From sequence record PX441839.1: DNA of 64,000 bases; one strand, given 5' to 3'. A program made the position numbers and the translations under genes. The notes under the pieces were generated by a model. It saw only the letters and a list, made by a program, of their open reading frames with translations, made no database searches and was not told the origin of the DNA. The stretch is from a phage. Below are positions 21,093 to 40,101 of the stretch, piece after piece. Every line of letters begins with the position of its first letter. Positions within the stretch are counted from its first letter, which is position 1.

Positions 21093-23111
21093 TTAAAATT
21101 TAATTTTCAGTGTTCGGGTGAAAGAACCAGACACTTTCACAGTAACTTCGTTTCGCACGGTATCCGAGAAACCAATACCTGCCAACTGACGATCAGACTT
21201 GGCAACCTTCATCTTAGCTGCAAGGTGTTCAAACACCTTACCGTGATCTTTAGCCAAATCGTTACGAAGATACTCATTATAGAATCCACGAGTACCCTCT
21301 GGATTGGCACAGCCCTCAAGGATGAAGAACATGTGCTTGTTTCCTACTCCTTGACCATCCCAATGGTTAGGAGAGTTCATCACCATAGAAACTTTCTGGA
21401 ACTGCTCTGTGGCGATACCCCACACTTCCTTGGACTGCTTGGTGCTGCCAATGGAGTCAAGAACCTTGATCCCGTGGATTCGAGAATACTCGAACGACAA
21501 CACCTTGACAGAACCTTTCTCACTTACAGCCTTGTCATAAACAAACTGTGTGGAGTTTCCACGGAAATCCAGTTCAACAACAAAACCTTCACGGTCACGA
21601 AGACGTTTGTTAAAGTTTTGAACCTCTACGCGATACACACCCTCAACCATACGGTTCATGTTAGGCCATGTAATGTTCTCAACCGGATTGAAAGCATCAG
21701 ATTCTCCGTATGCGTTCATATCGACATCCAGTTCAGCACCCGTGTTACCAAAACGGTTGCCAAAGTACACACGATTCCCGTTAGGTTCAATCAGGTACAG
21801 GTCAAGGTCATCTGGGTTAAACCACGACAGAGATACACGCAGTTCACCAGAAACACTACCACCCGCCGCCTTTACACGTTCCTTGATAGAGTCTGTAACT
21901 TCACCATTGTATGACCAAGAGAAGTTGTTATCCCATTTCAGCATATTAGGTGCATCTGGGTATACAGGTGCCACTAACGTCATCAGATTTGGAACATGAC
22001 GGTTTTCTACCAGAACTTCCAGAGCCTCTGCTTTAGGCAGGACGTTGGAAATAAAGTCTGCAATGCTGATCTCTTCTGCCTTGGCAGGTCCAGCCTTGGG
22101 CTTCTTAGCCGTGGCTAACAGGTCATCAAATGCATTCATCGCCTTCTTAGCTGAACGATCTGCAAACAGAACGTTATTGATAGTCAGGTCTTCTGCAACA
22201 GCATATCGACGAGGCAGTGAATCCATCATGCCCAACTCTTCAACTTTTTCCTGAGCCTTCTTGATCATGGCTTCTGTAACCAGCGCTGTCGGACGCTTAT
22301 AGTTTGCCGGGGCCATTACATTTTCCCAACGCTTAACCGCAGTTTCCAGATCCATGCCGTCAGAAAGATCTTGCAGCAGTGTACCTACCGCAGTGTTTCG
22401 GAACTTACCGAAAGCACCAAGTTCTTTACTCTTGGTCCATAAGAACGCATCACGGGACTCATCATTGTCGATATTATCAAACTCACGTTTGATTGCAACA
22501 AACTTCTCCAGTGTACCTTTGGCTTCATTGCCACGATACAGGGAGTTCTGAGCAATTAGTTCTAAAGCGGTTTCAGCAGAATCTGTGGTCAGTTCTTTCA
22601 GAGAACGTTCCAGAACTTGCTTGTTTCCACGGCTATCGTTTAACTTGGTCGGGATCTTGTCACCTCGCTCAACGTACTGGGACGGGAGAACCGCATGGAA
22701 GTGATTGAAGATGATAGTCTTCTCGTCACCAGCGCCTAAAATAACAGACCGCTCAGTACCAACCTTCGCCTGGAAGTGCAGAAACTCGTCAGTTACCTTT
22801 GCAGACTTAATAACATCCGCCATGGTATCAACCACCACCTGGTAGTAGCTTGGTACGGAGATGTCCCAAATAGTTACCATCTTGCCATCAACGAAAGTTA
22901 CAACTCGACCAAGGTCACGAATAAACTGCTTGCAGCAGTTGCAATCATATTCACGTCGCTCTTTGTAGATCAGGTTGGTTCCTTCTGGGAAAGAATCCAG
23001 GTAGGTGTTCCAAACAAGATCCTTATCCAAGGCCACCTCAAACAGGCCCGTCTTAGCCATCTTGGAAAGTTGTTTCTGCATTGCTGTTACAAAACCGTGG
23101 AAGTTGCTCAT
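21093..23111 (-). CDS. Large hypothetical protein (672 aa)
   Basis: Long uninterrupted ORF, no motif recognised; hairpin GGGGCC-TTTC-GGCCCC just downstream. Confidence 0.45.
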   Translation of the reverse strand: MSNFHGFVTAMQKQLSKMAKTGLFEVALDKDLVWNTYLDSFPEGTNLIYKERREYDCNCCKQFIRDLGRVVTFVDGKMVTIWDISVPSYYQVVVDTMADVIKSAKVTDEFLHFQAKVGTERSVILGAGDEKTIIFNHFHAVLPSQYVERGDKIPTKLNDSRGNKQVLERSLKELTTDSAETALELIAQNSLYRGNEAKGTLEKFVAIKREFDNIDNDESRDAFLWTKSKELGAFGKFRNTAVGTLLQDLSDGMDLETAVKRWENVMAPANYKRPTALVTEAMIKKAQEKVEELGMMDSLPRRYAVAEDLTINNVLFADRSAKKAMNAFDDLLATAKKPKAGPAKAEEISIADFISNVLPKAEALEVLVENRHVPNLMTLVAPVYPDAPNMLKWDNNFSWSYNGEVTDSIKERVKAAGGSVSGELRVSLSWFNPDDLDLYLIEPNGNRVYFGNRFGNTGAELDVDMNAYGESDAFNPVENITWPNMNRMVEGVYRVEVQNFNKRLRDREGFVVELDFRGNSTQFVYDKAVSEKGSVKVLSFEYSRIHGIKVLDSIGSTKQSKEVWGIATEQFQKVSMVMNSPNHWDGQGVGNKHMFFILEGCANPEGTRGFYNEYLRNDLAKDHGKVFEHLAAKMKVAKSDRQLAGIGFSDTVRNEVTVKVSGSFTRTLKIKF

Positions 23112-23676: not shown

Positions 23677-23702
23677 AAAAACCGCCCCGAAGGGCGGTTT
23701 TA
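23677..23702 (-). terminator. Rho-independent terminator closing the paralog array
   Basis: AACCGCCC-CGAA-GGGCGGTT hairpin with flanking A/T runs, directly after the stop at 23704. Confidence 0.6.
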
Positions 23703-23703: not shown

Positions 23704-24825
23704 TTAATCTACACTTGCACTTATTTCAGTCGCAAGTCTAAAGCTCCCTTCGACCAAGCCAGGGATCTCCTCAACATTGTTAATTACAACATTTGACACT
23801 CTGACAGGAGGAGAACTCGGCAGGTAATCCTCCACCTTGCTTGCCACAACATCACCGTTTGTGTTTTTGACCACCAGTTTCGAGGCAGATCTTGATGTAG
23901 TGGTTGGAGCCTTTGTGTACGTTGTAACCTGAACAGCTTTTATCTGTTGACCACCTGGTGCTCTCCAGCTTGGGGACAGGGCTACAATTGGTGCCTTCCC
24001 TACAGTTTCAGATGCCAATGAATTCACAGCAGGGGAGTTCATAGCCCTCCCCATTGTATTTGAACCCCCATAGACGATATCTGAAATTGTTTGTGTCGTT
24101 CCTCCAGAGAAGCTACCTATGTCAGTGACACTTTGTGTTGTTCTTGTTATTTGGGGTTCACCCAAGAACTCAAAATTCCCTTCTTCATTGTATGCAGTAT
24201 ACATCCTTCCAAACATTAGTGGGTTAACAGTGTCGCCAAAGGCAACTCCATCGTACAAAGCACCAGAGAACCCTATGAAAAGTCCAGTCCCAACTGGCAT
24301 ACGCTCTGCGAAAGTGTAAGGACCAAGCGGCCCTGCCGGGGCATCTCCGTTGAGTGAGTTCCATGTCTCAAAGCTATCTTCACTGACCTTTCTTATACAC
24401 ACCTCCATGTAGTTATAACCAGGGGTGTACGATGATCGCATCAGGACTGTAGATGGGTCAACCCCATTGAACTGGTTTGTAAGTATCCCCGTCCGGAGGA
24501 ATCCTCTATTAAAGGGGAAGAATACCCGATACCCGAAGGTAAAGGTGGCATTCACTGGAGCTTCAAGAAGTATCTTCCTGACATCTATGGTGAACCCACC
24601 ATAATCTCCAGTGGAGCTTGTAAACCTGATTGCGAACACGGGGGATGATCCTCCACTCTGGGAGGCGGTCATAAGGGACCCCGGCAAGGTAGGTGATTTT
24701 ATCATAGATATTGACACACCGAGCTTTTTTGACAGGTACTCCTCAAGACCCTTTTCATAATCGTTGCTGGAATTATATGCGAATGGTGTCATATCCAAAA
24801 AATCTGTAAATCCGAGTATTGCCAT
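23704..24825 (-). CDS. Array paralog C (about 373 aa, possible lectin-like beta-sandwich)
   Basis: Shares diverged blocks with paralogs A and B (Y-x-A-[FY]-N-x-E-G; GDVVASK near the C-terminus); ATG with AAGGAG SD; overlaps the stop of micro-ORF C. Confidence 0.5.
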   Translation of the reverse strand: MAILGFTDFLDMTPFAYNSSNDYEKGLEEYLSKKLGVSISMIKSPTLPGSLMTASQSGGSSPVFAIRFTSSTGDYGGFTIDVRKILLEAPVNATFTFGYRVFFPFNRGFLRTGILTNQFNGVDPSTVLMRSSYTPGYNYMEVCIRKVSEDSFETWNSLNGDAPAGPLGPYTFAERMPVGTGLFIGFSGALYDGVAFGDTVNPLMFGRMYTAYNEEGNFEFLGEPQITRTTQSVTDIGSFSGGTTQTISDIVYGGSNTMGRAMNSPAVNSLASETVGKAPIVALSPSWRAPGGQQIKAVQVTTYTKAPTTTSRSASKLVVKNTNGDVVASKVEDYLPSSPPVRVSNVVINNVEEIPGLVEGSFRLATEISASVD

Positions 24826-24827
24826 AA

Positions 24828-25025
24828 TCACTCCTTAATTGGTGATGTTAAGACTTCTGTTACCACGAGTAGCGTGTTCTGTGCCAACTCAGGTTGAAGG
24901 AGAACCTCTGTGACCACAATGCCGACATTGGCAGAAAATTGTGGTGTAATAAGAACCTCTGTTGTCACTAAATAGACGTTGGAAAACATTGCCTGTTCCC
25001 CAACGGCGGTCATGATTTCAATCAT
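24828..25025 (-). CDS. Micro-ORF C: conserved N-module plus three 17-aa tandem repeats
   Basis: MIEIMTAVG..., then VTTEVLITPQFSANVGI / VVTEVLLQPELAQNTLL / VVTEVLTSPIKE; start overlaps the stop of paralog B (ATGA). Confidence 0.5.
   Translation of the reverse strand: MIEIMTAVGEQAMFSNVYLVTTEVLITPQFSANVGIVVTEVLLQPELAQNTLLVVTEVLTSPIKE
24831..24968 (-). repeat. Three tandem 51-bp (17-codon) repeats inside micro-ORF C
   Basis: Repeated AGAACCTCTGT(T/G)... units visible on the plus strand. Confidence 0.6.
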
Positions 25026-26089
25026 ACATCCACAACCCTCTCGCTGGAAGCAACGAACGAAAGACCTGCCAACTGGTCCCTTCCTGAAAGTGGAATAGTC
25101 ACCTTGCTAACCCCACGGGCGTAATCTTGACTATCGTTCTTTATGCTTTTCGATTTCAAAAGCTCACCATCAGAACTTACTATCTGAGATGTGATATCCA
25201 CAGACTTGCCTTGTACACTTGATCTTCCAACTAGTGTAGAGCTAACCGCAGCAATCTTCACAGAAGGGTCAAGAGTTGAAAGATTAGCTTTTGCCACTGC
25301 TGGGTTTACTAGGGTTGTTGGACCCAGCAATCCTCCCAAGTGATTATAGTTTAATCTGTTGGTAAGTGTTGCCTCCCCGTTTGGGTTATCACCTCCAGAT
25401 ACCAGTGTGTTTGGTAATGTTCTTACCGAGCAAGTTCCCAAACGCTCCTCAAGACCTTCCTTGTTGAATGCCCAATATTGGTCCATAAATGTTACCTCCA
25501 CTTGAGTGGTTGGTAACTTATTGGTGGTAAGAGGGGACCAATTATACCCAGTGCCTATTACCATTTGCTGGGGAAGAGAGTTTACAGAATCGTTTTGCAA
25601 GACAGTGCCGTCAACCCAAGCCCTTAGTCGATATGAGGTTGCAGAAACTTTACTTACTTCAAGCTCCACGTACACTGATCTTTCTGATCCCGAGTACCTC
25701 TGCATAGGGTAATCCAAAACTGCTGCCAAAGATCCAGAGGTAAACCCTCCCAACCTTAGGTCTGCGGTCATATATTCTTGGGGGATGATTACTCGGCTTC
25801 CGACCGTAAGGGTATCGCCAACATCCACAATCCAAGGCCCAATCGACGTCACAGTTGCTGCGTATGATGTCATCGTCGGAAAGAATGACACCTTATTTTG
25901 ACCAACGGTTCCGTACATGGTGCCGGATGAAATGTAGTAATCGAATCTACCTCCGTTTGAACCCACAGGGGTTTTTGGAATACAAGCGGCATTTAATGTT
26001 TGTAGCAGCAGGAGCGCATCGTTACCTTGTATTTGCCCCTTGTTAGGGAATTCCCTGAGGGAACCGAACCCATTGATGTGAAAAATCAT
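25022..26089 (-). CDS. Array paralog B (about 355 aa)
   Basis: Conserved blocks IVDVGDTLTVG, YWAFNKEGLEERLG, VGRSSVQG shared with paralog A; start overlaps micro-ORF B stop. Confidence 0.5.
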   Translation of the reverse strand: MIFHINGFGSLREFPNKGQIQGNDALLLLQTLNAACIPKTPVGSNGGRFDYYISSGTMYGTVGQNKVSFFPTMTSYAATVTSIGPWIVDVGDTLTVGSRVIIPQEYMTADLRLGGFTSGSLAAVLDYPMQRYSGSERSVYVELEVSKVSATSYRLRAWVDGTVLQNDSVNSLPQQMVIGTGYNWSPLTTNKLPTTQVEVTFMDQYWAFNKEGLEERLGTCSVRTLPNTLVSGGDNPNGEATLTNRLNYNHLGGLLGPTTLVNPAVAKANLSTLDPSVKIAAVSSTLVGRSSVQGKSVDITSQIVSSDGELLKSKSIKNDSQDYARGVSKVTIPLSGRDQLAGLSFVASSERVVDV

Positions 26090-26094
26090 ACAAC

Positions 26095-26286
26095 TCACCC
26101 CACAGTATAAAGATATTCTTGAACAAAAGCCGCTGAGTTAATCTCTGACGGGACATAATACAGATATTCTTGAACAAAAGCAACAGTATCTGTATTTGTT
26201 GGGGAGTAGTACAGGTACTCCTGAACAAAAGTCACAATCTCAGGATTAATGGCTCCACTTCCAGAGGCTGTCATCATCTCCAACAT
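26095..26286 (-). CDS. Micro-ORF B: conserved N-module plus three 17-aa tandem repeats
   Basis: MLEMMTASG..., then VQEYLYYSPTNTDTVAF / VQEYLYYVPSEINSAAF / VQEYLYTVG. Confidence 0.5.
   Translation of the reverse strand: MLEMMTASGSGAINPEIVTFVQEYLYYSPTNTDTVAFVQEYLYYVPSEINSAAFVQEYLYTVG
26098..26226 (-). repeat. Three tandem 51-bp repeats inside micro-ORF B
   Basis: Repeated GATATTCTTGAACAAAAGC-like units on the plus strand. Confidence 0.6.
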
Positions 26287-26302
26287 AGCATTACCTCAAT
26301 AA

Positions 26303-26320
26303 GACGCCCCGAAGGGCGTG
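26303..26320 (-). other. Inter-cassette RNA hairpin
   Basis: ACGCCC-CGAA-GGGCGT between paralog A stop and micro-ORF B start; only a weak T-run follows, so attenuator or processing site rather than full terminator. Confidence 0.35.
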
Positions 26321-26324
26321 TGAC

Positions 26325-27377
26325 TTAAACATTCGGTTCTTTTTCCCTTGAAGATACGAAACTGTAGTTTGTAAGTTCAGACATTGGTTTATCACTCACA
26401 TCCAAAACTGTTTCACAGAAACCTCCACGATAATCAGGGGTTACAGATTCCTTTGTGGTTGAGGATACTACCTTTCCAGTGTGATCCAGAATCTGACTGG
26501 TCACCGGAGCAGGAACTCCCGTTACCGACGACTTACCTACAGTTGTCATCTTAAAAGCCTTAATCCTTAGGTTAGGGTTCGGGCTTGGCATATTCACCTT
26601 TTGTACCATAGGGTCGCGAAGGGTTATCGGGTCCTGAGACCCTTTCGAGAGATCCCAATTAACCCTTGCGGTCCCCCAAGTGGACCCACCAGGGTTTTCA
26701 CTTCCTGCCGTTAATGTTCTTGGGACTTGGGTCACGGTTGCTCTCCCAATTCTCTCATCCCTTCCCTCAGTATTAAATGCAAAATAGATATCTTGGAAAT
26801 AAAAACTCCCCGCTGGGTTGGTGTTGGATTTCCAAAGAACACTTGTTCCAATAGCACCATAGTTGAACAGTTCCGACCCTTGACCCGCTTTCCTCAAAAG
26901 ACCGTTTACCCACATCTCGTAAGTGTATGGGTAATCAGGATGATCTGTTTTTCTAACTACCATCTCCACATACGGATTAGCTGTCCTATCTGTGTGGTCA
27001 CAAACCATGGTTAATGACGACAGATACCCATTTGAAAATCCACCAACCGCAGGTAATGAATTTGCGTGAGTAGATGTCATACCCAATCCACAACCAACCG
27101 TCAAAGCGTCCCCAACATCAATAATTATGGATGGGAGGTGAATATTCAAACATCCGATCCCTGATGGACCCAATACGTTCATTGACAACCTGTTGGTCCC
27201 AGGTAAAGATAGATTAGGGCTAGAACTCTGGTATGCATAATTTGCAAAAGTTGCACCTTGCTTTGGGCTTTGTGGGTGCCCGTACCGCAGAGAAGTTAAA
27301 ACGGTTTGGATATCGTTAGTGCTTACCAAGTTAGTTAATGGCTCCCACACAGAAAACCCCTGAATTCCGATAATCAT
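26325..27377 (-). CDS. Array paralog A (350 aa, possible lectin-like beta-sandwich)
   Basis: IIDVGDALTVG, YFAFNTEGRDERIG, VGKSSVTG blocks; SD AGAGGAAAG; ATG overlaps micro-ORF A stop (ATGA). Confidence 0.5.
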   Translation of the reverse strand: MIIGIQGFSVWEPLTNLVSTNDIQTVLTSLRYGHPQSPKQGATFANYAYQSSSPNLSLPGTNRLSMNVLGPSGIGCLNIHLPSIIIDVGDALTVGCGLGMTSTHANSLPAVGGFSNGYLSSLTMVCDHTDRTANPYVEMVVRKTDHPDYPYTYEMWVNGLLRKAGQGSELFNYGAIGTSVLWKSNTNPAGSFYFQDIYFAFNTEGRDERIGRATVTQVPRTLTAGSENPGGSTWGTARVNWDLSKGSQDPITLRDPMVQKVNMPSPNPNLRIKAFKMTTVGKSSVTGVPAPVTSQILDHTGKVVSSTTKESVTPDYRGGFCETVLDVSDKPMSELTNYSFVSSREKEPNV

Positions 27378-27574
27378 ACACTTTCCTCTATAACGTATAA
27401 ATATTCCGGCATTAAACCTATCGTACTTACATCGGGAATGATGGAGTACAAGTATTCCGGCATAATGCCTATAAGATTTACCTCTGGGGCCAGAATATAA
27501 AGATATTCCGGCATAAGACCTATGACCTCAACTGGGGCCTTTCTTACCCCTGATGCCGTCATCAATTCTATCAT
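27374..27574 (-). CDS. Micro-ORF A: conserved N-module plus three 17-aa tandem repeats
   Basis: MIELMTASGVRKAPVEVI, then GLMPEYLYILAPEVNLI / GIMPEYLYSIIPDVSTI / GLMPEYLYVIEESV. Confidence 0.5.
   Translation of the reverse strand: MIELMTASGVRKAPVEVIGLMPEYLYILAPEVNLIGIMPEYLYSIIPDVSTIGLMPEYLYVIEESV
27377..27520 (-). repeat. Three tandem 51-bp repeats inside micro-ORF A
   Basis: Repeated (A/G)ATATTCCGGCAT(T/A)A... units on the plus strand. Confidence 0.6.
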
Positions 27575-27586
27575 ACATACCCCCGA

Positions 27587-28426
27587 TTACACTTTTCTTG
27601 CATTGCTGGGAAATTCTCGTTTCTCCGTATCACCCCATATGATCCTTACAGCAGATGCACCTGGGGCATTTGAAGATCCGTGTCCAGACCCACCTCCGAA
27701 GTTTCCTCCTCGTCTACCACTCTGGTCTTCGCCTCCAGACCCACCTCTTGCACTTGTGGGGATTTGACCACCCCTGCCCCCTGCACCATTGACACCTACT
27801 CCGTAAATACCCACTCCACCACCGCCACCTGAGTTTTCACCAGATGACCCTGAGAAGTAATATCCTACAGATCCTCCACCCCCACCACCTTCCCCGCTAC
27901 CTCCAGCGGAGTAATTTGTAGAAGGGGGGTATGCATTACCTCCGTCCCCTCCCTTTCCTATATACCCTGCTGCACCTCCAGCGCCAGCACATCTTTTCCT
28001 GTCATTGGCGGAGGAGTTACTCCCTCCAGCACCACCTTTGTTTATTACCGCACCACCCATATCAGGATACGATCCTGTGTAAGGTTCCGGTCCAGAACCA
28101 AACCCTGCGACAACCAGCGGAGTTCCATCCCGAAAAAGTCCAACAACAGTTGTCCCATCATCGCTGCCTCTTGTGTGGACCTGTAGAGTCTCCCCAGGTA
28201 GCACAGGTATGTGGTTTCTCCATACTAGGTCTCCCCCAGCACCACCTCTACGTGGGAGAGGATCTGTTTGAGGCATCCCTCCTTGACCGACACACACTAC
28301 GCTAATATCTTCCACATTGTTTGGAACAACCCACAACTTAGGTGCAGTAGTGAGGGAAGTGTACTCCACATTCCCTAGTTTAACTGGAGCTTTAGTTTTT
28401 ACCGTCGCTGTCATTAATTCTAACAT
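27587..28426 (-). CDS. Glycine-rich protein with fused N-module
   Basis: Starts MLELMTATVKTKAPVKLGNVEY (resembles the micro-ORF N-module), followed by long GGxGG low-complexity tracts; start moved to the internal ATG that carries the shared motif. Confidence 0.45.
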   Translation of the reverse strand: MLELMTATVKTKAPVKLGNVEYTSLTTAPKLWVVPNNVEDISVVCVGQGGMPQTDPLPRRGGAGGDLVWRNHIPVLPGETLQVHTRGSDDGTTVVGLFRDGTPLVVAGFGSGPEPYTGSYPDMGGAVINKGGAGGSNSSANDRKRCAGAGGAAGYIGKGGDGGNAYPPSTNYSAGGSGEGGGGGGSVGYYFSGSSGENSGGGGGVGIYGVGVNGAGGRGGQIPTSARGGSGGEDQSGRRGGNFGGGSGHGSSNAPGASAVRIIWGDTEKREFPSNARKV

Positions 28427-28451
28427 AACTTTCCTCTTTAAGATACTAATT

Positions 28452-28709
28452 CTAGAACGGGTCTCCATCCAAGATCGGTATTAGCTGTACCGTTAATCTT
28501 CCCACCGAAGATATTCCCAGTAGACTAGGAGATACCTCTGCGTGGAACATGTTATTTTGGTACATTGTGAATTCAGTCGATAGTGAGTACCTGCCGTAAA
28601 TTGGAGGGTTAAAGTCCGTAGTTGGCAAAGTCAGAAGTGTCATAAGTACCTCTCTAAAATTCAATGCAATTGGATCGCTGTTTATAAAACCATAAAGTCT
28701 TCCTTCCAA
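28452..28709 (-). CDS. Hypothetical small protein
   Basis: 85 aa ORF inside the array; contains an EVLMTLLTL stretch. Confidence 0.3.
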   Translation of the reverse strand: MEGRLYGFINSDPIALNFREVLMTLLTLPTTDFNPPIYGRYSLSTEFTMYQNNMFHAEVSPSLLGISSVGRLTVQLIPILDGDPF

Positions 28710-28842
28710 ATTACCACAATTTCAAGCATTATTTACCCTCTGTGTTGCATGGAAGGATCTTTATTGATCCTCGACGTACCGCAGGATTCTTATCACTCCT
28801 TGCACACTGTTGTCGGGTACTGGTGAGTATAGCCTAGGTATC

Positions 28843-29379
28843 TCAAGTATATATAAACTCCCCTGTAAAGTTTACATCCGTGTATATTCCACGAAACGGA
28901 GATACAATCTTCATCAACCCGCTTACAGGGTCTAAGTACACAAAATTAGTAACCGTATATCCTAAGTAACTGGAGTAAGAGTTACTGGTGTGGTTATTCC
29001 TTGAAACCGAAATATATTGATTATAAGTAACAGTTACTGTTTTCGTTATAAGGACGGTAGAATTAGTCCGCAGCAGGGCTTGGTACGTACCATACGAAGG
29101 TGAGGCATGTTGCGCTACCAGATACCACCAAGAGTCGTAAGTTACCGAAGTTCCGTATGGGCTTCCCCACATCCTCCCGTCTGTTGAGTACACTTTCCCG
29201 ACATCATACGCCATAGTTTGGGCCGGAGCAGTGACCTCGGGTATCCAAGACCCTGCCGCCTGATTGTCAGGGATACGGAGTATTCCCCTTTGTTGGTCTA
29301 GCCATTTTAGAAACACAGGATAGGTCATGGGGCCCTCGATTGGGGCGGATGCCCCTGATACCGACAGTAACTCAAGCAT
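28843..29379 (-). CDS. Array family member with fused N-module (about 179 aa)
   Basis: Starts MLELLSVSGASAPIEG; the longer ORF-track start lies inside the upstream terminator hairpin, so the internal ATG with a GGAGAG SD was chosen. Confidence 0.4.
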   Translation of the reverse strand: MLELLSVSGASAPIEGPMTYPVFLKWLDQQRGILRIPDNQAAGSWIPEVTAPAQTMAYDVGKVYSTDGRMWGSPYGTSVTYDSWWYLVAQHASPSYGTYQALLRTNSTVLITKTVTVTYNQYISVSRNNHTSNSYSSYLGYTVTNFVYLDPVSGLMKIVSPFRGIYTDVNFTGEFIYT

Positions 29380-29397: not shown

Positions 29398-29422
29398 AAA
29401 GGGGCCGAAGCCCCTTTTTTCT
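29398..29422. terminator. Hairpin terminator between the polymerase gene and the paralog array
   Basis: GGGGCC-GAAG-CCCC hairpin flanked by AAA and TTTTTT. Confidence 0.55.
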
Positions 29423-29501: not shown

Positions 29502-29801
29502 TCAGTGACATTGCCCCCAATTAAGTCCTGTCAGATACTCACCTGTGATATGTACAGGTGCCTTCATCATCTTAGCTGCTTGTTCAACGCAACGAACAAC
29601 CATTTCACCGACAGGGCAGTAGATGATAGTGAATATTCCATTCTCATCGGGGTCGCACTTAAACTTACCTTCCTTGACACAATGACCATCCAGAACCATA
29701 CGCTTCTTGAGGCAATCCTCAACAAAAGCTTTTGCTTCGACTTCATTGTCAAACTTCCATTCCTTCTTGAACTTATTTGGAACTTCAAGCTGGTATTCAT
29801 C
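29502..29801 (-). CDS. DNA polymerase (family A), exon 2
   Basis: Translation begins DEYQLEV (motif C region) and ends ...LNWGQCH, resembling the T7 gp5 C-terminus; a TAA lies in frame just upstream, so this cannot be a continuous extension. Confidence 0.55.
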   Translation of the reverse strand, partial: DEYQLEVPNKFKKEWKFDNEVEAKAFVEDCLKKRMVLDGHCVKEGKFKCDPDENGIFTIIYCPVGEMVVRCVEQAAKMMKAPVHITGEYLTGLNWGQCH

Positions 29802-30631
29802 CAAAGTTTAGCAGGTTCGTTAATCCTGCCCACACCATTACGTGTTGCCATACGGTTTCCCGTAGGATCGGACTATATCACCACCCTTTTCAGGGTGCTC
29901 CCCATTTCGACGCCACTTGGTCGCCTACGCCTCTCGGCTAGTCTCTGAACGTTAAGACCACGTATACTTCTCGGAAATATGCTTCCACTGCCGACGCTGC
30001 TTAATGGCTCGTACTGTTGCATAGGGGAATCCCATGTCGCGTACCTCTGCCTGGCTCATTCCGCTTTCAAGAAGCTGGCAAATGGTCATCACTTCGTCTT
30101 CTGTGAGGGCACTATTAGCATTGTTGATACCTTCCGCGCTGCGACAGTTGTGGCGATAGGCGTTCTCTATGTTTTTGCCTCTCGTAACCCACTGTAGGTT
30201 GTCTTTGTGGTTATTCCTTTTATCGGGCCACTTGTGATCAACCTCTGGAAGATTGTTCGGATTGGGAACAAAACATTCTGCCACCAAAACATGGACCGCC
30301 TTTGTCGTCGCCTTTTTGTTAAGGTAAAGACTGACAATTGCATACCCTCTTCCATTATCAACATGCTTCATAGGTTTACCTCGACGACCTATAATGGTCC
30401 CGTCCTCGTAAACTTTATATCCGAAATAGTCTTTGTACTCCACGTAGTCCTCTTCGCTGCTGATTAACATAGCTGCACTTTAGTTTATTATTAACCCAGT
30501 GTCAACCTTAGCCTTCCAGCAATTAAAGGAGTTTTCGATGTAGGTTGCCCTACAAAGCCACAATGTTACTTATGGTAATAGATAATACGACGAACTCCCT
30601 CGTCATACCATCCCTTCTTGACCAGTTGCCA
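29802..30631 (-). mobile_element. Group I intron in the DNA polymerase gene (boundaries approximate, about +/-6 nt)
   Basis: On the transcribed strand: P-like AATTGCTGGAAGG, R-like GTTCAGAGACTAGCC, S-like GATATAGTCC, terminal G before exon 2; contains an HNH ORF. Confidence 0.55.
29952..30470 (-). CDS. HNH homing endonuclease (intron-encoded)
   Basis: VHVLVAECFVPNPNNLPEVDHKWPDKRNNHKDNLQWVT His-Me finger signature; paralog of the ORF in the second intron. Confidence 0.65.
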   Translation of the reverse strand: MLISSEEDYVEYKDYFGYKVYEDGTIIGRRGKPMKHVDNGRGYAIVSLYLNKKATTKAVHVLVAECFVPNPNNLPEVDHKWPDKRNNHKDNLQWVTRGKNIENAYRHNCRSAEGINNANSALTEDEVMTICQLLESGMSQAEVRDMGFPYATVRAIKQRRQWKHISEKYTWS

Positions 30632-32899
30632 GTGAAGCAAGATTCCAACCAGGTCAAATAGTGCTGCACCACCATTCTGCTGAAATGCGTTCAACAGGGA
30701 GTGCTTTGAACGAGTCCAAATCTTACGCCCATCCAAACCATAGATGAATCTTTTCCCTGTCGCTTCCCAGAATTTCTCCAGCGCTTCTTTACGACCTTTT
30801 AATCCGATGTTGCTATCCCAGAATGCGTTGATTACATCCTGTGCCTTATCTACTGTGATTCCAAGCATGGATGCAATCTTGGGTGCCTGAGCGCCGTACA
30901 TGATTCCATACGTGATACTCTTTCCCTCGCCACGAGAAACCTTCTTCCCCGCTGCCTTTGTGTATGCCTCTGCGTTTCGGGTGTGGGCGTCCCCCGACTC
31001 CATGATTTCAAGGTAAGCGCCACCATCGAACTCATACGCACCCCAAGCCGCAATCATACCTTCCAGGTTAGAACCATCAATACCCACTTGGTACTTACCC
31101 TTTGGTGCTCGCCAAAGGGAACGCATCTCATAACCAAACAACACCTTCGGATCAGGCTTAGGCATGTTTGCGCAGATCGTGTGCTTACGACGCCCAGTGT
31201 TGGTAATCCCTGAGAACCTTGCTGGTAATCGACCATCAATCTTCAAGCGTGGGTGGTTAAGAAGTCCAGTATCAACCTTATCCTCTTTCAGTGGATCAAG
31301 GACAGATCGTCGGTTACGTGCAGATAACCACTGAACAATGCCTTTAGCCATCGCACCATCCACCTTTTCCAAGTTTGGGCACAATCCCTGCTGGTCTTTC
31401 AACTGAGGGCTTGTTGGCAATGCACGGGCCTTCTTACGGAAGAATTTGAACATCTTCTCCTTGTCTGCCCACTGCTTAGGGGTAATGTGCAAGTTCTTAA
31501 GGATAAGATCACGATATTCTGTCTGATCTAGTTGCTCAATATACTCCCGCACAATTGCATCAACTTCACCATCCGGACGTTGCTTTTTAAACTGGTCCTT
31601 TGTTGCATCCTTTGTACGCCAAATTGTTGGAATCCAACCCGCATCTCGGATGAGGAACTTCTTAACATCATCCTGGTTACCGATACGCATCGGAATCATT
31701 ATATCTGGCATGGTCTTATTCTTCAAGTCCGCCAAAGCCCGTGCCATATCCTCTGGAGGTAGTGGCTCCAGTGTGGATTGTTTTTCGTTCTGACTACGAA
31801 TGAACTGAGGCATTTGATCCTCATCTTCCACCCCGTGGTCATTACAGTATTTAATAGCCGCAGCCGTAAGTGAACCATCTGCCTTAAATGCTTTAGCCGG
31901 AGGCCCCTTGAAATCAAGGGCTTCCCAATTAATATTGTATCCTAACTTCTCCAGCCATTTCCAACCTGTGCCGGACAATGTCCCGTCACCCTTGAAAGGT
32001 TTGGATGGGAAAGTTGGTTGTGCGGATTTAGCCATCTCTTTCTTCGGAAGCTGAGGCTCAACCTCTTCCTCAATCTTCTTCATGAAGGCATCAACCGTAT
32101 CGCGGAGTTTCAGCGCCGCCTCTATGTCAAAATCAACACCTTGGATTTCTTGCTCAATCATCAGGTAATCGGTAAGCATACCTCGACGAAGAGAGTCTTT
32201 CCAGTTGATCATTTTATATTTTGTTGGGACACGCTCATCTTTAAACATGAAGCGTTTATCATCTGGGTACGCATCGCAGGTGATTTCCTTCATAAGGGCG
32301 TCCCACACCTTTTCGTTGATGATAACGTCCTCAATGATACGGTCACAATACTTCCACAACGGGAGTCCACGCCAATCATCAATGGCGACTTTCAGGTTGG
32401 CTACTCTCATACCCCATGCTTCCAGACCATGAGGGCCAACAGGTTTCATCTTTCCTGTGACAGGGTTTTTAACCATTTCTGGGCAACCCTTCGGCAATGG
32501 GCGGTCAGGGTAGAGTGTACGAGACATAGACAAGGAGTCAAACAGGTTAACCTGTTTTCCATTGATCGTTCCCATGCACTTAGGATCGGCAAACATATCG
32601 TATTGTGTACCGAACAGCTTCTTGAACAGACGTAAGTCATATCCAAACAAGTTGTGAATAACAATGCTACTAGGGACTTCTGTGAACCATCTATTAAGGT
32701 CAGAGAAGTTCATTACATGCAGATTGAATCCCTTCGCATTAACGAAGTTCAAAGCCTCTTGATAACCCTCTCGCGCTGGGTCCATGAAGAGATACCAGTT
32801 ATCCTTTTTGTACTCCTTGAAGAGGATGCAGTGAGCATGTAAGTTCTCCTCGTCAAGTAAACCAGATGCTTCCGCATCACCTACCCATAAACCTTTCAT
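30632..32899 (-). CDS. DNA polymerase (family A, T7 gp5-like), exon 1
   Basis: Exo I GDAEASGL; motif A IDGSNLEGMIAA; motif B RGEGKSITYGIMYGA; the ORF-track C-terminal 21 codons (30566-30631) are interpreted as intron read-through. Confidence 0.75.
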
Positions 32900-32955
32900 C
32901 TTGTTCTCCTTTTCTCATACCTTCTGGTAAGATAACCCATTCCCCATAAAAGATC

Positions 32956-32976
32956 AAGCCCAGCTTTCACTGGGCT
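32956..32976 (-). other. Hairpin upstream of the polymerase gene (terminator or attenuator)
   Basis: AGCCCAG-CTTTCA-CTGGGCT followed by a T-run on the minus strand. Confidence 0.4.
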
Positions 32977-32982
32977 TCTGTA

Positions 32983-33318
32983 TTAAGGTACAACCTGCAT
33001 ATGGTTAGAATCGCAACCATCGTACCAGTGGTCAAAGAAAATCTTCACTGTGTCATCCCAGGCGAAAACATTCGCACGTTTTAACTCCTCGTTGAACTCC
33101 TTAATAAGTTCATGTGGATTGAAGGATTCAAAAGAGAAATCATAGCTCTCTTCATCACGTTTGATAAAAAGAATCATGTTCCCATCGTAGTTCAATTTCA
33201 GGTTCGATTCAATTTCTTCCAGCCACTCTTGCAGGTCGATATGCTCAGAATTTTCATAGCCACCTACCGGAATAGCCATCTCTGCCATCACGCCGAAAGT
33301 TATACGTTGATTACTCAT
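32983..33318 (-). CDS. Hypothetical protein
   Basis: 111 aa ORF. Confidence 0.4.
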   Translation of the reverse strand: MSNQRITFGVMAEMAIPVGGYENSEHIDLQEWLEEIESNLKLNYDGNMILFIKRDEESYDFSFESFNPHELIKEFNEELKRANVFAWDDTVKIFFDHWYDGCDSNHMQVVP

Positions 33319-33578
33319 TTCTTATTTCCTCCCCAAATTTCAAAAGATGGTTCCCAGCACAAAGAGATCTTACAAGAATAGATCAGTTTGTTGTCCTCAT
33401 CGTACAGTTCACAATTAACATCACCCTCCTTCCAACTTTCCCAACCATCGTGGTAATCTCGATAATCAGCAGCGGCCTGTTGAGCAATTGATTCCAGATC
33501 CCATTCATCCTCTAAGTCAAAAATGGTCATATCTGGAGCGAAGGTGTACTCGTAACCTTGAATAACATACTTAATCAT
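33315..33578 (-). CDS. Hypothetical protein
   Basis: 87 aa ORF, overlapping stop/start. Confidence 0.4.
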   Translation of the reverse strand: MIKYVIQGYEYTFAPDMTIFDLEDEWDLESIAQQAAADYRDYHDGWESWKEGDVNCELYDEDNKLIYSCKISLCWEPSFEIWGGNKK

Positions 33579-33844
33579 TAATACTCTCCTCTCAGAAGGC
33601 CATCTTTGTCAGGGAAGGTGGCACCATCACCACCTTCAAACATTCCGTCCAGGTCTGCGATTACAAGAGCACCCTGCTCACCTGACTGAACAAACCGTAG
33701 AGATCCTGAATAAGAACCACCACCAAAAATTTGGATACCTAGGGCCTGAGCTTGTCGCCCGTAACGGGACAGACCTTTTGCAATACGCTCAACTTCTTTT
33801 GGATCTAAACCTGCTGCTTCACACTCATCAACATTCGCGTACAT
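33578..33844 (-). CDS. Hypothetical protein
   Basis: 88 aa ORF. Confidence 0.35.
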   Translation of the reverse strand: MYANVDECEAAGLDPKEVERIAKGLSRYGRQAQALGIQIFGGGSYSGSLRFVQSGEQGALVIADLDGMFEGGDGATFPDKDGLLRGEY

Positions 33845-34212
33845 TATTTCTCCAGATATTCCAAGCGAGGGTATTTTTTACCTGCGTAGGTTTCGACATT
33901 ACCACACTTGTTACAGGTATGTGGGTACTTTATCGGGCTGGACAGAAGTGCATCTCCACGAGACTCCATTTCCCCACCGCATTCGCAATACATGTGGATA
34001 AAGTAAGGTTTTGCCTCTACTCGCCGTTCACCCTTTGTCGGCTTAGGATCTGTGGCCCTCATGTTCCATTGTTCTTGGAGATAATCAAATCCGTGTTCTG
34101 TTCTTTTCTGACAGCCGCAGTTCCCACATTCGGCAACGTACCGATCAGAGTACCTTTTCTCCTCATATGTGTATGCTTCACTCCCGCAGAACGGACAAGG
34201 TTTAAAGTTCAT
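33844..34212 (-). CDS. Double zinc-ribbon protein, Lar-like (possible restriction alleviation)
   Basis: N-terminal PCPFCGSEAY...CGNCGC and a second CECGG...CNKCG pair; the CPFCG start is reminiscent of Lar-family proteins. Confidence 0.35.
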   Translation of the reverse strand: MNFKPCPFCGSEAYTYEEKRYSDRYVAECGNCGCQKRTEHGFDYLQEQWNMRATDPKPTKGERRVEAKPYFIHMYCECGGEMESRGDALLSSPIKYPHTCNKCGNVETYAGKKYPRLEYLEK

Positions 34213-34654
34213 TATCGACCTCCAGACTTAACTCAACCATAGCTTTCTGCCCTGTTGCGCCATAATAAAAAACTTGGAAACTGTCGAAAGTGTAATAAAT
34301 ATCCCACATATCAGGATCTGTAGGCCAGCACTCGATCAATTTACCGCTGTCCCATTCATCCCCTACCCACTCATCATAACCCTCAACATTTTTGTAGTGC
34401 TTGCTCCCACTTTTCCCATTCGGGTATTCTGCCAAGCAACGTAAGAGGAAATTAACAAAACGTTTAAGGTCCTTTTCCCCTTCAAATACAAACACTTCAT
34501 TTTTGTAACCGTCTGCATCACCAATCATCCAGCGAGCTTCAACCGTGTAGACATTGAAGTGTTCCAGAGGGACAAGTCCGGTAATGTTAAGATCTTTGAC
34601 CTTGTAGGTTTTTGTGTCTCGAAACTCTTGAGTTACAAACGTTTTCTTTATCAT
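34202..34654 (-). CDS. Hypothetical protein
   Basis: 150 aa ORF. Confidence 0.4.
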   Translation of the reverse strand: MIKKTFVTQEFRDTKTYKVKDLNITGLVPLEHFNVYTVEARWMIGDADGYKNEVFVFEGEKDLKRFVNFLLRCLAEYPNGKSGSKHYKNVEGYDEWVGDEWDSGKLIECWPTDPDMWDIYYTFDSFQVFYYGATGQKAMVELSLEVDNEL

Positions 34655-34663
34655 AGTGTTTCC

Positions 34664-35377
34664 TTATTGGTTGTGTAGGAAAACTGCCTTTGCCAAACCC
34701 CTTGGGGTAAGGGAGCGTATCAGTTTTGTACGTGCCGATTTACCACCTAACTTATTATGCTGCTCAGAATATCCCTGTGCGACACCGACAGGCGACTTCA
34801 CTGGCATCTTGAACCCTTTCCCCGTCCAAAGGCATGTCTTCTTAGGATAAGCGTCACGAGCCTTAATGTACTCAGGGAAAAATGGATTCACATCATCCTC
34901 CGGTAAGTAACCACCATACTCATATGGGTGGAACTGGTAGTCAGATTTTCTCCATTTTGTTGCCAAAACACTTACAGGGTTTTCTATCATGTAAGGGCAG
35001 TCGAAAACAAACTCTGCCAAGTATGCCGGAATTTTTGCAGTACGTACAGCATTTATTTGGAAAAATGGATCTTTTGCTGCTTTTCTTTTAAAGTGGGCTG
35101 CACCGCTCACCGCCATATCTGTGCAGGGAGGGAAGGCAAAGATAATATCTGGGTTTGGGATTCCCAAACTTTCAACATTCTCTGCCCACTCCATGTCAAT
35201 CCACGCATCCACATACGTCACGTTCGGGTGATTAACTCTTACATTATCATACAATCCGTGGTCAGCCTCCTTAGCGTTGAAGCAGAAGCACAGGTGACCA
35301 GCTTTTGCCCAATCAAAGACCATTGCCCCAGATCCATCAAACAAAGACCAAACAACCTTTTTAGACATGCTTTTCAA
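34664..35377 (-). CDS. DNA (cytosine-5)-methyltransferase, small
   Basis: Motif I LFDGSGAM (FxGxG), motif IV FPPC (catalytic PC), motif VI ENP in canonical order. Confidence 0.55.
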   Translation of the reverse strand: MKSMSKKVVWSLFDGSGAMVFDWAKAGHLCFCFNAKEADHGLYDNVRVNHPNVTYVDAWIDMEWAENVESLGIPNPDIIFAFPPCTDMAVSGAAHFKRKAAKDPFFQINAVRTAKIPAYLAEFVFDCPYMIENPVSVLATKWRKSDYQFHPYEYGGYLPEDDVNPFFPEYIKARDAYPKKTCLWTGKGFKMPVKSPVGVAQGYSEQHNKLGGKSARTKLIRSLTPRGLAKAVFLHNQ

Positions 35378-35738
35378 ACCCCAAGGTGGTTACCAATTGC
35401 TCGTAATCCCAAGTATCCAGGTATGCTTTCTCTCCATGTTTGGCAAAACCTCGCCACTTATTGGTTCGATACAGGAACCAAAGTTGTTTCGCAACATTCT
35501 TATCATCAACATACCCCAGCAGAAATGCCCAACGGTGGGTTGGAATGAGGCCAACAGCAATACGATTAAGTTCGTCCCATTGGTTTGTTTTCACATTAAA
35601 AACCCAAAGTCGTTTCCTGATCACCTCTTTACTTTTCAGGAGGTCACGTAAATGTTCTGCACGTTTAATCATTGTGTCGTGTACATTCGCGGCACGGATC
35701 AGTGTGTTTTTGTTAACTTCGATCAAGGTGTTACTCAT
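35361..35738 (-). CDS. Hypothetical protein
   Basis: ORF with internal start chosen to limit overlap. Confidence 0.35.
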   Translation of the reverse strand: MSNTLIEVNKNTLIRAANVHDTMIKRAEHLRDLLKSKEVIRKRLWVFNVKTNQWDELNRIAVGLIPTHRWAFLLGYVDDKNVAKQLWFLYRTNKWRGFAKHGEKAYLDTWDYEQLVTTLGFEKHV

Positions 35739-35979
35739 GTTCTTCCTCCTCCGCAATCTCACCAATGGCAACAAACTGATCATGGTCAAGAGATACCCAT
35801 GCACCAAGGATTCCGTTGTGTACCCAGAAGGTGAACATGTCACCGCTTTCGTCTACGGCGCAGTAATTTACACCATCTTCGTCCTCGTATTCATTAATTA
35901 CTTCAAGGAAGGACCCTACCCGTAAGACATTACTTAACGTTACCTTTATTTTCACCTTTGCCTCCAAAATCATGTTCAA
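35731..35979 (-). CDS. Hypothetical acidic protein
   Basis: 82 aa ORF. Confidence 0.35.
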   Translation of the reverse strand: MNMILEAKVKIKVTLSNVLRVGSFLEVINEYEDEDGVNYCAVDESGDMFTFWVHNGILGAWVSLDHDQFVAIGEIAEEEEHE

Positions 35980-35988
35980 GTTTAATGA

Positions 35989-36246
35989 TTATACTATCTT
36001 GTCACCAATGATGCAAGGAACATACACAGACCCGCCATTACTGTTGGTAATCTTTACTTTTGGGGATGAGGTCATCAAAATATCCTCCTCATCCACCCCA
36101 AACCAGTCTTCACCATATTCCAGTAAGGCATTCAGTGTGCGAATTACGTAGATAGCTTCCTCTGTACCACAATCGTAGAGATCCTCTTCACTCTCTTGTC
36201 GTTCAATGGCAGTACGTTTGTCCAGTTTCACAAAATAACGGCTCAT
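35989..36246 (-). CDS. Hypothetical protein
   Basis: 85 aa ORF. Confidence 0.35.
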   Translation of the reverse strand: MSRYFVKLDKRTAIERQESEEDLYDCGTEEAIYVIRTLNALLEYGEDWFGVDEEDILMTSSPKVKITNSNGGSVYVPCIIGDKIV

Positions 36247-36449
36247 TTCTTTTTCCTCTTTGATTCAACTTTTGGTTCCACTAGTCGGGCTTGGTAAGAA
36301 TGAGGTGTGACGTACCGCCATGTTTTCTTTAAGTGTTCAACAAGTTCTTTCAGGTTTTCTTCGTCGGTGGCCCAACCCAAGGTTAGGGCAGGATCACCTA
36401 CCGACATCTGGCACTTGACATACCAACGGGTAACTGTAGGATGTTTCAT
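36243..36449 (-). CDS. Hypothetical protein
   Basis: 68 aa ORF. Confidence 0.35.
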   Translation of the reverse strand: MKHPTVTRWYVKCQMSVGDPALTLGWATDEENLKELVEHLKKTWRYVTPHSYQARLVEPKVESKRKKK

Positions 36450-36700
36450 TTCATTACCTCCAGAAAGGATTTAAACTCTTCAACATTCCGTTTGTGTACA
36501 ATTTGGGGCCAGTTTTTAAGAATATCTCGAAACTTTACATAGCGTTCTCGGAATCCAACCACCCCTCCAATACATAACAGGGTTACCCCTTCAACACCGA
36601 CAAAAGTTACAACTTCCACAATCTTGGAGTTATCATACCCACGATTAACAACGAGATCCCCGATCTCAAAGTCAACATTTTCATTTGATGAATAGTTCAT
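36446..36700 (-). CDS. Hypothetical protein
   Basis: 84 aa ORF. Confidence 0.35.
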   Translation of the reverse strand: MNYSSNENVDFEIGDLVVNRGYDNSKIVEVVTFVGVEGVTLLCIGGVVGFRERYVKFRDILKNWPQIVHKRNVEEFKSFLEVMK

Positions 36701-36761
36701 TTTGTCCTCTCCTTATTTGATAGGGTAAGTATAAGTGAGATTTTGCCCCATGTCAAATGAA

Positions 36762-36780
36762 AAAAGGCCCCCGAAGGGAC
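36762..36780. terminator. Hairpin terminator after the primase-helicase gene
   Basis: Imperfect GGCCCC-CGAA-GGGACC hairpin flanked by A-run and T-run, immediately 3' of the stop at 36788. Confidence 0.45.
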
Positions 36781-36787
36781 CTTTTAT

Positions 36788-37258
36788 TTAGAAAGGTGGT
36801 TGGTCATCCCAATCACTGTCGTCTTCCACAACCTCAGGTGTGACTTTAGATTCTTCCGGTTTGGAATCCTCTTTAATCTCCATCTGCTGTGGTTCAATGT
36901 CATCTTCATCATCAGGGATATCGTCTTCCTTGAGATCAGATAGACCTTTCTCCGAGTTCTCTTGTGATAATGGCTGCATTTTACCAACAGCCTTCTCAAC
37001 ATAATGTTCAGAACTTGGATCATCTTCTGGATGAATCGCATACCACTCTCGAAGAGTTTCATATGGACTGTCCAAGAAGCCTTCTGGCGGTTCTAAGTAA
37101 TCACCTGTGTCAATATCATAGAACACAGGGAACTTCCCGCTACGCCCGTGCTTACGGTCATCTAGAATTACAAACCAAGAGGTATTTCGCTCTTTCATTG
37201 GCAACTCTGGATCTTTGTTACGCTCAATACCCACCATAAAATAAGTGTTCTTTTTGTC
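36788..37258 (-). CDS. Primase-helicase (T7 gp4-like), exon 2
   Basis: Begins DKKNTYFMVGIERNK...DDRKHGRSG...YDIDTGDYLEP (helicase C-terminal motifs) and ends in an acidic tail DDSDWDDQPPF with terminal Phe, as in T7 gp4. Confidence 0.55.
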   Translation of the reverse strand, partial: DKKNTYFMVGIERNKDPELPMKERNTSWFVILDDRKHGRSGKFPVFYDIDTGDYLEPPEGFLDSPYETLREWYAIHPEDDPSSEHYVEKAVGKMQPLSQENSEKGLSDLKEDDIPDDEDDIEPQQMEIKEDSKPEESKVTPEVVEDDSDWDDQPPF

Positions 37259-39644: not shown

Positions 39645-39804
39645 TCACCAATCTCCTTTACCATCGTTGCTACAAAAATGGTGTTTCCGTTACCATTTAT
39701 ACCAACAGTGACCGGACCTGCGAGTTTGTAACCGTATCCGTACCACTTCTCGATAGTATCTTCAAGGACCTGCATGTTGGTGTAATTTAACAGTTTCACT
39801 TCCA

Positions 39805-40080: not shown

Positions 40081-40101
40081 TGTTTGCTCCTTCTTTTATT
40101 A

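Follow-up and report, generated by a model that had tools for sequence, protein, structure and literature searches.

A variable array of tagged genes beside the DNA polymerase gene of a Vequintavirinae phage, a candidate bank of adhesin-type accessory virion proteins

The stretch of phage DNA analysed here, a window of 64 kb, carries at positions 23704-29379 an array of nine packed open reading frames (ORFs) on the minus strand, which is flanked by two hairpins. Five of the nine ORFs begin with the same short module, M-[IL]-E-[ILM]-[LM]-[TS]-[AV], in the following referred to as the tag. We lean, with slightly more confidence than doubt, towards the explanation that the array is a hypervariable bank of adhesin- or lectin-type accessory virion proteins, which are addressed to the particle by the tag, and in which three tag-bearing micro-ORFs (s1 to s3) act as adaptors for three large proteins (L1 to L3) that lack it. 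Since related tagged proteins occur in purified virions, the tag probably serves as a plug by which exchangeable modules for host recognition are attached to the particle.

Results

The array and its N-terminal tag

The source phage belongs to the subfamily Vequintavirinae (rV5 / PVP-SE1 / Certrevirus group). Its closest record is Salmonella phage SSBI34, with 83% nucleotide identity across 90% of the window positions 30000-50000; the array itself has almost no nucleotide-level relatives. The original prediction, which was made from the window alone, had described nine minus-strand ORFs, two of them with the module fused to a body (genes A and C) and three consisting of the module as a separate ORF of 63-66 amino acids (aa), each in front of a protein of 350-375 aa. 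All of these elements are present at the predicted positions, and a regular expression for the module, applied to all six frames of the window, finds the five ORF starts and nothing elsewhere. Beyond what had been predicted, the analysis revealed three 17-aa repeats in each micro-ORF, the remnant of a decayed tagged gene and the intron that defines the boundary to the polymerase gene. The features of the array and its borders are as follows, in the direction of transcription of the array.

29502-29804, minus strand: last exon of the family-A DNA polymerase gene, upstream boundary of the array
29398-29422, no strand assigned: GC hairpin with UUCG loop, separating gene A from the last polymerase exon
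28843-29379, minus strand: gene A, tag MLELLSVSG plus body, 178 aa, phrog_6409 type
28682-28729, minus strand: 15-codon ORF (MLEIVVIWKEDFMVL, then stop) from the six-frame translation, degenerate tag, probable remnant of a decayed cassette
28452-28709, minus strand: 85-aa ORF, probably what is left of the C-terminal part of a laminin-G-type tagged gene
27587-28426, minus strand: gene C, tag MLELMTATV plus glycine-rich, PF21722-type, adhesin-like body, 279 aa
27374-27574, minus strand: s1 micro-ORF, 66 aa, tag MIELMTASG, basic linker, three 17-aa repeats with core LMPEYLY
26325-27377, minus strand: L1, 350 aa, tagless large paralog
26304-26319, minus strand: GC hairpin with UUCG loop between cassettes 1 and 2, -11.6 kcal/mol, weak U-tract
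26095-26286, minus strand: s2 micro-ORF, 63 aa, tag MLEMMTASG, three 17-aa repeats with core FVQEYLY
25022-26098, minus strand: L2, large paralog, 358 aa from GTG, likely ATG start at 26089
24828-25025, minus strand: s3 micro-ORF, 65 aa, tag MIEIMTAVG, three 17-aa repeats with core VVTEVL
23704-24831, minus strand: L3, 375 aa from GTG, likely ATG start at 24825, CR9_061 / phrog_28811 clade
23677-23702, minus strand: intrinsic terminator closing the array, -17.1 kcal/mol, z=-3.2, followed by UUUUUUAUU (U-tract)

Scans of all nine proteins with Pfam, PHROGs, NCBIfam and PADLOC matched only the function-unknown PHROGs 28811, 4474 and 6409, and no protein of the tagged array has a signal peptide. 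Over tag positions 2-9, the codons differ in 27 of the 44 pairs of identical residues. Because identical residues use different codons, the tag is conserved at the protein level, as had been argued from the synonymous differences between the copies, and this variation rules out an RNA-level signal as an explanation of the tag.

In its wider form the tag reads M-[LIQFN]-E-phi-phi-x-phi-small-[GS], after which comes a short linker that is basic and contains proline. It is found in at least 25 genes with unrelated bodies, which are clustered and belong to Vequintavirinae, Erwinia phage RAY and PhiEaH1, with up to 5-7 tagged genes per genome. Glycine-rich bodies follow the tag in PVP-SE1 gp19 (MFEMMLATSE), SSBI34, the related locus L017, RAY_112 and PhiEaH1_202, whereas laminin-G bodies follow it in two SSBI34 proteins (221 aa and 216 aa), POP15_066, RAY_114, PhiEaH1_199 and PhiEaH1_201. 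In a scan for PF13385 (Laminin_G_3) that covered the two SSBI34 proteins, POP15_066 and RAY_114, scores of 28.3-36.6 bits were obtained, above the gathering cut-off of 27.6. Tagged members of the gene A family are RAY_282 (MLEMLMGSK) and RAY_283 (MLELLMYAGKK), and a further tagged family comprises CB7_55, a 240-aa protein of the IMG/VR contig L010 and PhiEaH1_200.

In RAY, three such genes likewise lie after the DNA polymerase gene: RAY_284 (glycine-rich, MIGLLLNK), RAY_283 and RAY_282 are situated directly downstream of it (RAY 225853-231359). The polymerase neighbourhood of tagged genes is thus the same in RAY and in Vequintavirinae, although the phages are unrelated.

Two further candidate functions of the tag were rejected. 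A double-glycine bacteriocin leader, suggested by MLEIMMGG|S, is off register with the ELxxIxGG consensus; at this position SG, AG or TV is found in most copies, and there is no C39 exporter. For a degron recognized by the ClpP/HslU homologues of the phage there is no evidence, and it does not fit presence in the virion.

Tagged relatives are virion proteins

Purified virions of Pectobacterium phage CB7 were previously found by mass spectrometry to contain 26 proteins, among them CB7_55 (4 peptides, 24% coverage), which is the only CB7 structural gene outside the structural module and adjoins the polymerase gene (PMC7344957). CB7_55 begins with the tag (MQEMMIVTSKPG). Mass spectrometry likewise confirms CB7_251 and its phiTE homologue phiTE_203, both with a laminin-G body, as virion proteins, so that three tagged relatives are present in virions. 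The annotated start of CB7_251 (CB7 locus L009, 4748-5392) lies 30 codons downstream of the correct one and so conceals the tag, whereas the annotation of phiTE_203 (L013, 601-1245) includes it; the full CB7_251 ORF and phiTE_203 both begin MNELLLIGCQ, their N-terminal peptide being MNELLLIGCQETETLLFNIPPVEGGGSK, and the SSBI34 homologue begins MQEMLTVATLSG.

The phiTE_203 product, pTE203, is labelled virion structural protein in RefSeq and is the most abundant unassigned protein of the phiTE virion (emPAI, the exponentially modified protein abundance index, of 533; mass-spectrometry dataset MassIVE MSV000097283), and the 2025 phiTE cryo-electron microscopy (cryo-EM) study attributed no density to it (PMC11972413). 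Such an absence of ordered density would be in keeping with a protein on a flexible tether. Directly upstream of phiTE_203 lies the pseudo-ToxI non-coding RNA (phiTE 106714-106772; L013, 492-550), which is the site of ToxIN-escape recombination.

Micro-ORFs are paired with tagless large paralogs

In each micro-ORF the tag is followed by a short basic linker and then by 17-aa repeats, exactly three in number, with a strand-like core. Conservation of the repeats is confined to the protein level: conserved residues often differ in codon, and no DNA tandem repeats were found in the micro-ORFs by Tandem Repeats Finder (TRF). The stop codon of each micro-ORF overlaps the start of its L gene by 4 nucleotides (nt), in the case of s1/L1 as ATGA.

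Such pairs are present three times in the window, twice in SSBI34 and once each in CR9 (062/061), PBES 02 (171/170), POP15 (065/064) and contig L010; in SSBI34 one of the L genes is broken into 236 + 93 aa, and the s3 counterpart begins MIEIMTASG. The combination of tag and exactly three period-17 repeats is found in 9/9 micro-ORFs, each with the L start overlapping or abutting its stop codon. Among the L homologues, 0/17 carry a tag or a fusion, and all complete ones begin M-[IA]-I-x-[IG]-x-GF (L2 homologues with MIFSINGF). The repeat type co-varies with the clade of the partner, E-Y cores occurring with the L1/L2 clade and E-V cores with the L3/CR9_061 clade.

The three large proteins had been called clear paralogs of one another. 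This holds fully for L1 and L2, which align over their full length (BLASTP E=4e-35, 30% identity); L3 is more distant from both (E about 1e-3), but all three match phrog_28811 (L3 at 1.6e-31), and the motifs quoted in support, IIDVGDALTVG, YFAFNTEGRDERIG and VGKSSVTG with their variants, are present. L3 shares 54% identity with a 371-aa SSBI34 protein and 29% with the homologues of CR9, PBES 02 and POP15. The L family is very rare, with 15 representatives among 1.84 billion cluster representatives; a word-indexed search returned one or two. None of its 17 members has a Pfam match at E<=1 (PF13385 included), and the L profile has no sequence match in the PDB at E<=10. Because the large paralogs match no characterised family, the system is not one that was already known. 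L1 is probably all-beta, with a putative concanavalin-A-like core and a C-terminal domain.

Genes C and A

Gene C matches phrog_4474 at 2e-67 and is 69% identical to PVP-SE1 gp19. A HMMER search returned 178 homologues, many with precomputed PF21722 matches, while gene C itself has no Pfam match at E<=1; it nevertheless shares with the PF21722-type homologues the conserved N-terminal strand and the C-terminal motif AVRIIWGxxxxxFP (GAVRIIWGxGRxFP). The only papers that a literature search on PF21722 returned concern plants. The tag is present on about 17 of the 120 gene C homologues listed, and in the others the same body follows longer, different N-termini or an FN3 domain. SSBI34 contains, at about 93236-94078 (locus L001, about 7237-8079, minus strand), an unannotated intact gene for a 280-aa glycine-rich tagged protein (MLELMTATVQTKRP...), which is the orthologue of gene C.

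No PDB sequence matches gene C at E<=10. Its AlphaFold2 model, built with 61 sequences, has a pLDDT (predicted local distance difference test) of 88 and a pTM (predicted template modelling score) of 0.89, with tag residues 3-6 forming a short, less confident helix. The predicted fold is probably fibre- or adhesin-like: the best Foldseek match in the PDB is the fibre of cyanophage Pam3 (7ypx_A, E=1.6e-4), followed by tail-tip chains of Bxb1 (9d93, 1e-3 to 1e-2) and ALK glycine-rich domains (7e-3 to 0.2), and against a viral library the matches are glycine-rich-domain, tail-fibre and baseplate proteins.

The start of gene A, ATG at 29379, corresponds to codon 23 of a longer ORF starting with GTG and is preceded by the Shine-Dalgarno sequence GGAGAG. 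The gene A-type domain also forms the C-terminus of the 438-aa protein CR5_143, which is annotated as 'virion structural protein'. Since the C and A bodies follow longer N-termini elsewhere, the tag sits where other phages have a longer N-terminal region, as though it stood in for a shaft.

A decayed cassette and cassette turnover among relatives

SSBI34 holds an intact tagged laminin-G gene at the place where the window has the MLEIVVIWKEDFMVL ORF and the 85-aa ORF. The latter lies in another frame than the former and has no Pfam or PHROGs family matches. By tblastn, residues 151-166, in the C-terminal part of the 221-aa SSBI34 protein, match positions 28706-28659, at the start of the 85-aa ORF (75% identity, E=0.007), and the laminin-G trace in the window is limited to this match of 16 residues. 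From the sequence comparison, the two ORFs are probably the remains of a sixth tagged gene, of laminin-G type.

The content of the locus differs widely between relatives, in line with the diversifying locus that had been proposed: between zero and eight tag-system genes lie downstream of the polymerase gene, counting each micro-ORF and each L gene separately.

CB7: none downstream; a tagged gene upstream of the polymerase gene
PVP-SE1: one tag-system gene
L017: two tag-system genes
CR9, PBES 02: two tag-system genes each
POP15: three tag-system genes
L010: three tag-system genes, plus one upstream
SSBI34: seven tag-system genes
this window: eight tag-system genes plus the remnant

The array of the window is the largest among the loci examined, and therefore this phage should be a good system to test whether such an island sets host range.

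Borders of the array

The array had been placed directly downstream of the polymerase gene, which is correct, with the true end of that gene at 29502. A group I intron (29849-30581, minus strand; RF00028, 54 bits, gathering score 50) interrupts the family-A polymerase gene and contains an ORF for an HNH homing endonuclease; the ORFs at the site are 29952-30470, 29502-29804 and 30566-32899. The 100-aa ORF 29502-29804 is contiguous with a 904-aa polymerase (...YYHDEYQLEVP...) in contig L010. As this ORF is the last polymerase exon, the array begins about 120 nt past the true end of the polymerase.

Of the two flanking terminators that had been proposed, 23677-23702 is strong on the minus strand, whereas the hairpin 29398-29422 has a weak U-tract on this strand, its T-run being strong on the plus strand. 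All three GC-rich hairpins (29398-29422, 26304-26319 and 23677-23702) share a CUUCGG top, i.e. a UUCG tetraloop, and a clear coding-strand U-tract is seen at 23677-23702 only.

Downstream, a 672-aa ORF (21093-23111, minus strand) has no Pfam match, and its L017 homologue carries DUF8224. In SSBI34, CR9, PBES 02, POP15 and L017, this ORF is conserved and borders the variable island on its downstream side.

Discussion

A bank of accessory virion proteins

Two roles had been considered for the array, namely a bank of alternative proteins for receptor binding or decoration that share a module for attachment to the virion, and a family of secreted or host-targeting effectors. The first is favoured by our data, since relatives are detected in virions (CB7 and phiTE), the bodies are of lectin or adhesin type and the cassettes vary between close relatives. 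In this bank, each product would reach the particle by means of its short N-terminal address tag, behind which stand different bodies of putative carbohydrate-binding type: gene C, the gene A body, laminin-G in relatives, and the L proteins. In the split cassettes the tag would be contributed not by the large protein but by the translationally coupled adaptor of 63-66 aa, which may bind either three copies of its cognate L protein or a single one by way of three strands, bringing it to the site where the fused, tagged proteins dock. It is the gene architecture, together with the co-variation of repeats and L clades, that suggests such a role for the micro-ORFs. We further infer incorporation through the tag itself, an external position of the proteins in the tail or fibre network, and binding of the bodies to glycans of the host surface. 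Gain, loss and decay of cassettes would then alter what the particle can bind.

Several observations weigh against this explanation. The virion proteomes are those of relatives, which share with the window the tag only (CB7_55) or the tag and a laminin-G body, and none of the nine proteins of the window is covered by these detections; the laminin-G body of the CB7_251/phiTE_203 type is a mere remnant in the window. RAY gp112 and gp114 are not listed in the crude-lysate proteomics of RAY; the RAY proteomics papers are uninformative on gp112, gp114, gp282 and gp283. The array is placed within the replication module instead of with the late structural genes. A loose M-x-E-phi-phi is expected by chance about once per genome, and spurious matches were seen, so that the membership of variant tags (MQE.., MNE..) rests partly on context. 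The tag also spans very different virions (Vequintavirinae, the nucleus-forming RAY and PhiEaH1), which would require a shared or convergent docking site. Finally, on the structural side, the Foldseek TM-scores of gene C are low (0.2-0.37 overall, 0.31-0.37 against solved fibres), the L1 model is of low confidence (pLDDT 40), and the comparison of L with the tagged laminin-G group by hhalign is not significant (probability 1.3%, E=0.039).

A far-reaching version of the bank explanation, which we regard as possible but rather doubtful, is a universal plug and socket shared by unrelated enterobacterial myoviruses, i.e. Vequintavirinae, the nucleus-forming Agricanvirus and Iapetusvirus. Here, the nine-residue tag would dock swappable lectin or adhesin modules, and the three-repeat single-chain adaptor would be a pseudo-trimer, by which a tagless concanavalin-A-like protein, as a trimer, is seated on a one-tag socket.

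Comparison with known systems

The closest functional precedent, by analogy, is found in podophages of Klebsiella (KP32, K11 and KP34), where an N-terminal 'conserved peptide' of receptor-binding protein (RBP) 2 docks on the T4gp10-like branching domain of RBP1 and is necessary and sufficient for virion incorporation (PMC13352976). As proposed for the tag, a short conserved N-terminus on variable binding proteins provides the docking in these podophages. The KP32 peptide is, however, 29 aa long (MLDNFNQPKG...) compared to about 9 aa for the tag, and there is no sequence homology between the two, KP32gp38 beginning MLDNFNQPKGSTIGVLKDG and sharing M-L-[DE] alone. The systems also differ in that the KP32 type comprises trimeric podovirus depolymerase tailspikes with one secondary RBP per phage, whereas a myovirus genome of the type described here has up to 5-7 tagged genes, with the tag sometimes on a separate three-repeat micro-protein.

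Several alternative binding proteins with N-terminal adaptor regions and cassette-like exchange are likewise mounted on a single particle in the branched assemblies of several tailspikes known from Ackermannviridae (CBA120, TSP1-4) and from G7C (gp63.1/gp66). These are trimeric tailspikes whose genes belong to the structural module and whose N-terminal domains are large (XD, T4gp10-like), in contrast to the short peptide, the small lectin-like bodies and the location beside the polymerase gene in the window. Gene C may resemble gp38 of the T2 and Salmonella phage S16 type and cyanophage Pam3 gp24 in its order of N-terminal attachment element, beta-sandwich and glycine-rich lattice (7ypx match; PMC9942802). 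Its similarity to such polyglycine fibres is nevertheless limited (TM-scores of 0.34-0.37, which are low, and 15-17% identity), its attachment element has about nine residues instead of a helical bundle or domain, and it is of PF21722 type with the C-terminal GAVRIIWGxGRxFP, unlike S16/T2-type gp38 and Pam3 gp24.

Alternative explanations

In phage T4, the internal proteins IPI, IPII, IPIII and Alt carry a capsid-targeting sequence, and the internal-protein loci of T-even phages are polymorphic. The main alternative to the bank, conceivable though unlikely, is that the tag is a sequence of this kind, by which the proteins are loaded into the prohead through binding to the scaffolding core; the prohead protease may then cut the tag off, and ejection of the DNA would carry the proteins along, to act in the host, for example against its defences. 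The island would in this case be the counterpart of the T-even internal-protein loci. The T4 pattern indeed recurs: a conserved N-terminus of about 10 aa precedes unrelated proteins, the variable loci lie outside the structural module, and the products are in virions, in our case those of relatives. Vequintavirinae also encode a T4-type prohead core protease (CB7_5, Table 4, PMC7344957), the tagged relatives are in virions yet invisible in the phiTE cryo-EM maps (PMC11972413), and the array genes sit among early or middle genes. The cargo of T4, however, is internal and cut at [LI]-x-E by gp21, and no such site closes the tag: Glu at residue 3 is the only one that is invariant, what follows the tag contains no consistent [LI]-x-E, and the residues up to the next Glu are P-V-E, N-P-E, P-I-E and N-V-E, with the qualification that the Vequintavirinae protease may differ from that of T4 in its specificity. 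The tag is not shared by any scaffold or head gene of the SSBI34 structural module. Moreover, the bodies, unlike the T4 internal proteins, are of lectin or adhesin types typical of external fibres: beta-sandwiches and a polyglycine adhesin-like fold, the latter with external fibres as its solved relatives. Long fibre-like or structural proteins carry the same bodies at their distal ends. The pairing of a three-repeat micro-ORF with a tagless partner, which T4 does not have, is left unexplained.

Quite unlikely, in our view, is that the micro-ORFs are not stoichiometric adaptors but assembly chaperones or split-off N-terminal strands of L, in which case a micro-ORF would help its L protein to fold or complete its beta-sandwich as a 1:1 heterodimer, and the common N-terminus would reflect descent from fused tagged genes. 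In favour of this are the translational coupling of the two genes and their strict adjacency, the fusions of tag and body that exist for the A, C and laminin-G types, and the frequent need of phage fibres for dedicated small partners, such as the chaperone of the Pam3 fibre (PMC9608196). Known fibre chaperones, however, are encoded downstream and without a conserved virion-protein tag, and the three-repeat count is invariant across very diverged pairs. Clear purifying selection on the tag of the micro-ORFs argues, in addition, for its continued use.

It is very unlikely that the proteins are non-structural, acting inside the cell or after secretion, with the tag serving as a signal for degradation, localisation or translation initiation and the virion detections being contaminants or chance matches. 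Such a role would suit the location in the replication module, the virion data concern relatives and not the window proteins, and a loose motif can arise by chance. Yet tagged proteins were detected in two independent virion proteomes, phiTE_203 is marked as a virion structural protein in RefSeq, and the synonymous variation is incompatible with a signal in the RNA. The secreted or host-targeting effectors that had been considered for the array are likewise disfavoured, because signal peptides and PADLOC or NCBIfam matches, i.e. matches to defence or effector libraries, are lacking.

The idea that the split into small and large genes is a sequencing, assembly or frameshift artefact, for which only the 4-nt overlaps speak, as one frameshift would fuse the ORFs, is excluded by the comparative data, since the two are separate in all nine pairs examined from phages and a viral contig (three in the window, two in SSBI34, and one each in CR9, PBES 02, POP15 and the IMG/VR contig) and none of the 17 L homologues with the common N-terminus is fused.

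Significance

If the tag is a docking peptide, it would mark a class of accessory virion proteins that is widespread and has gone unannotated until now, covering rV5/PVP-SE1-like therapeutic and biocontrol phages as well as Erwinia jumbo phages. This would account for the orphan virion proteins CB7_55, CB7_251 and pTE203, which could not be placed by cryo-EM, and the tag-bearing three-repeat micro-proteins would represent a new kind of adaptor. In practical terms, the tag would offer a portable and very small means of attaching new binding modules to these phages. Should the plug-and-socket version hold, the adaptor would constitute a previously undescribed solution to a 3:1 symmetry mismatch, and the tagged cassettes a natural toolkit for the exchange of host range across phage families.

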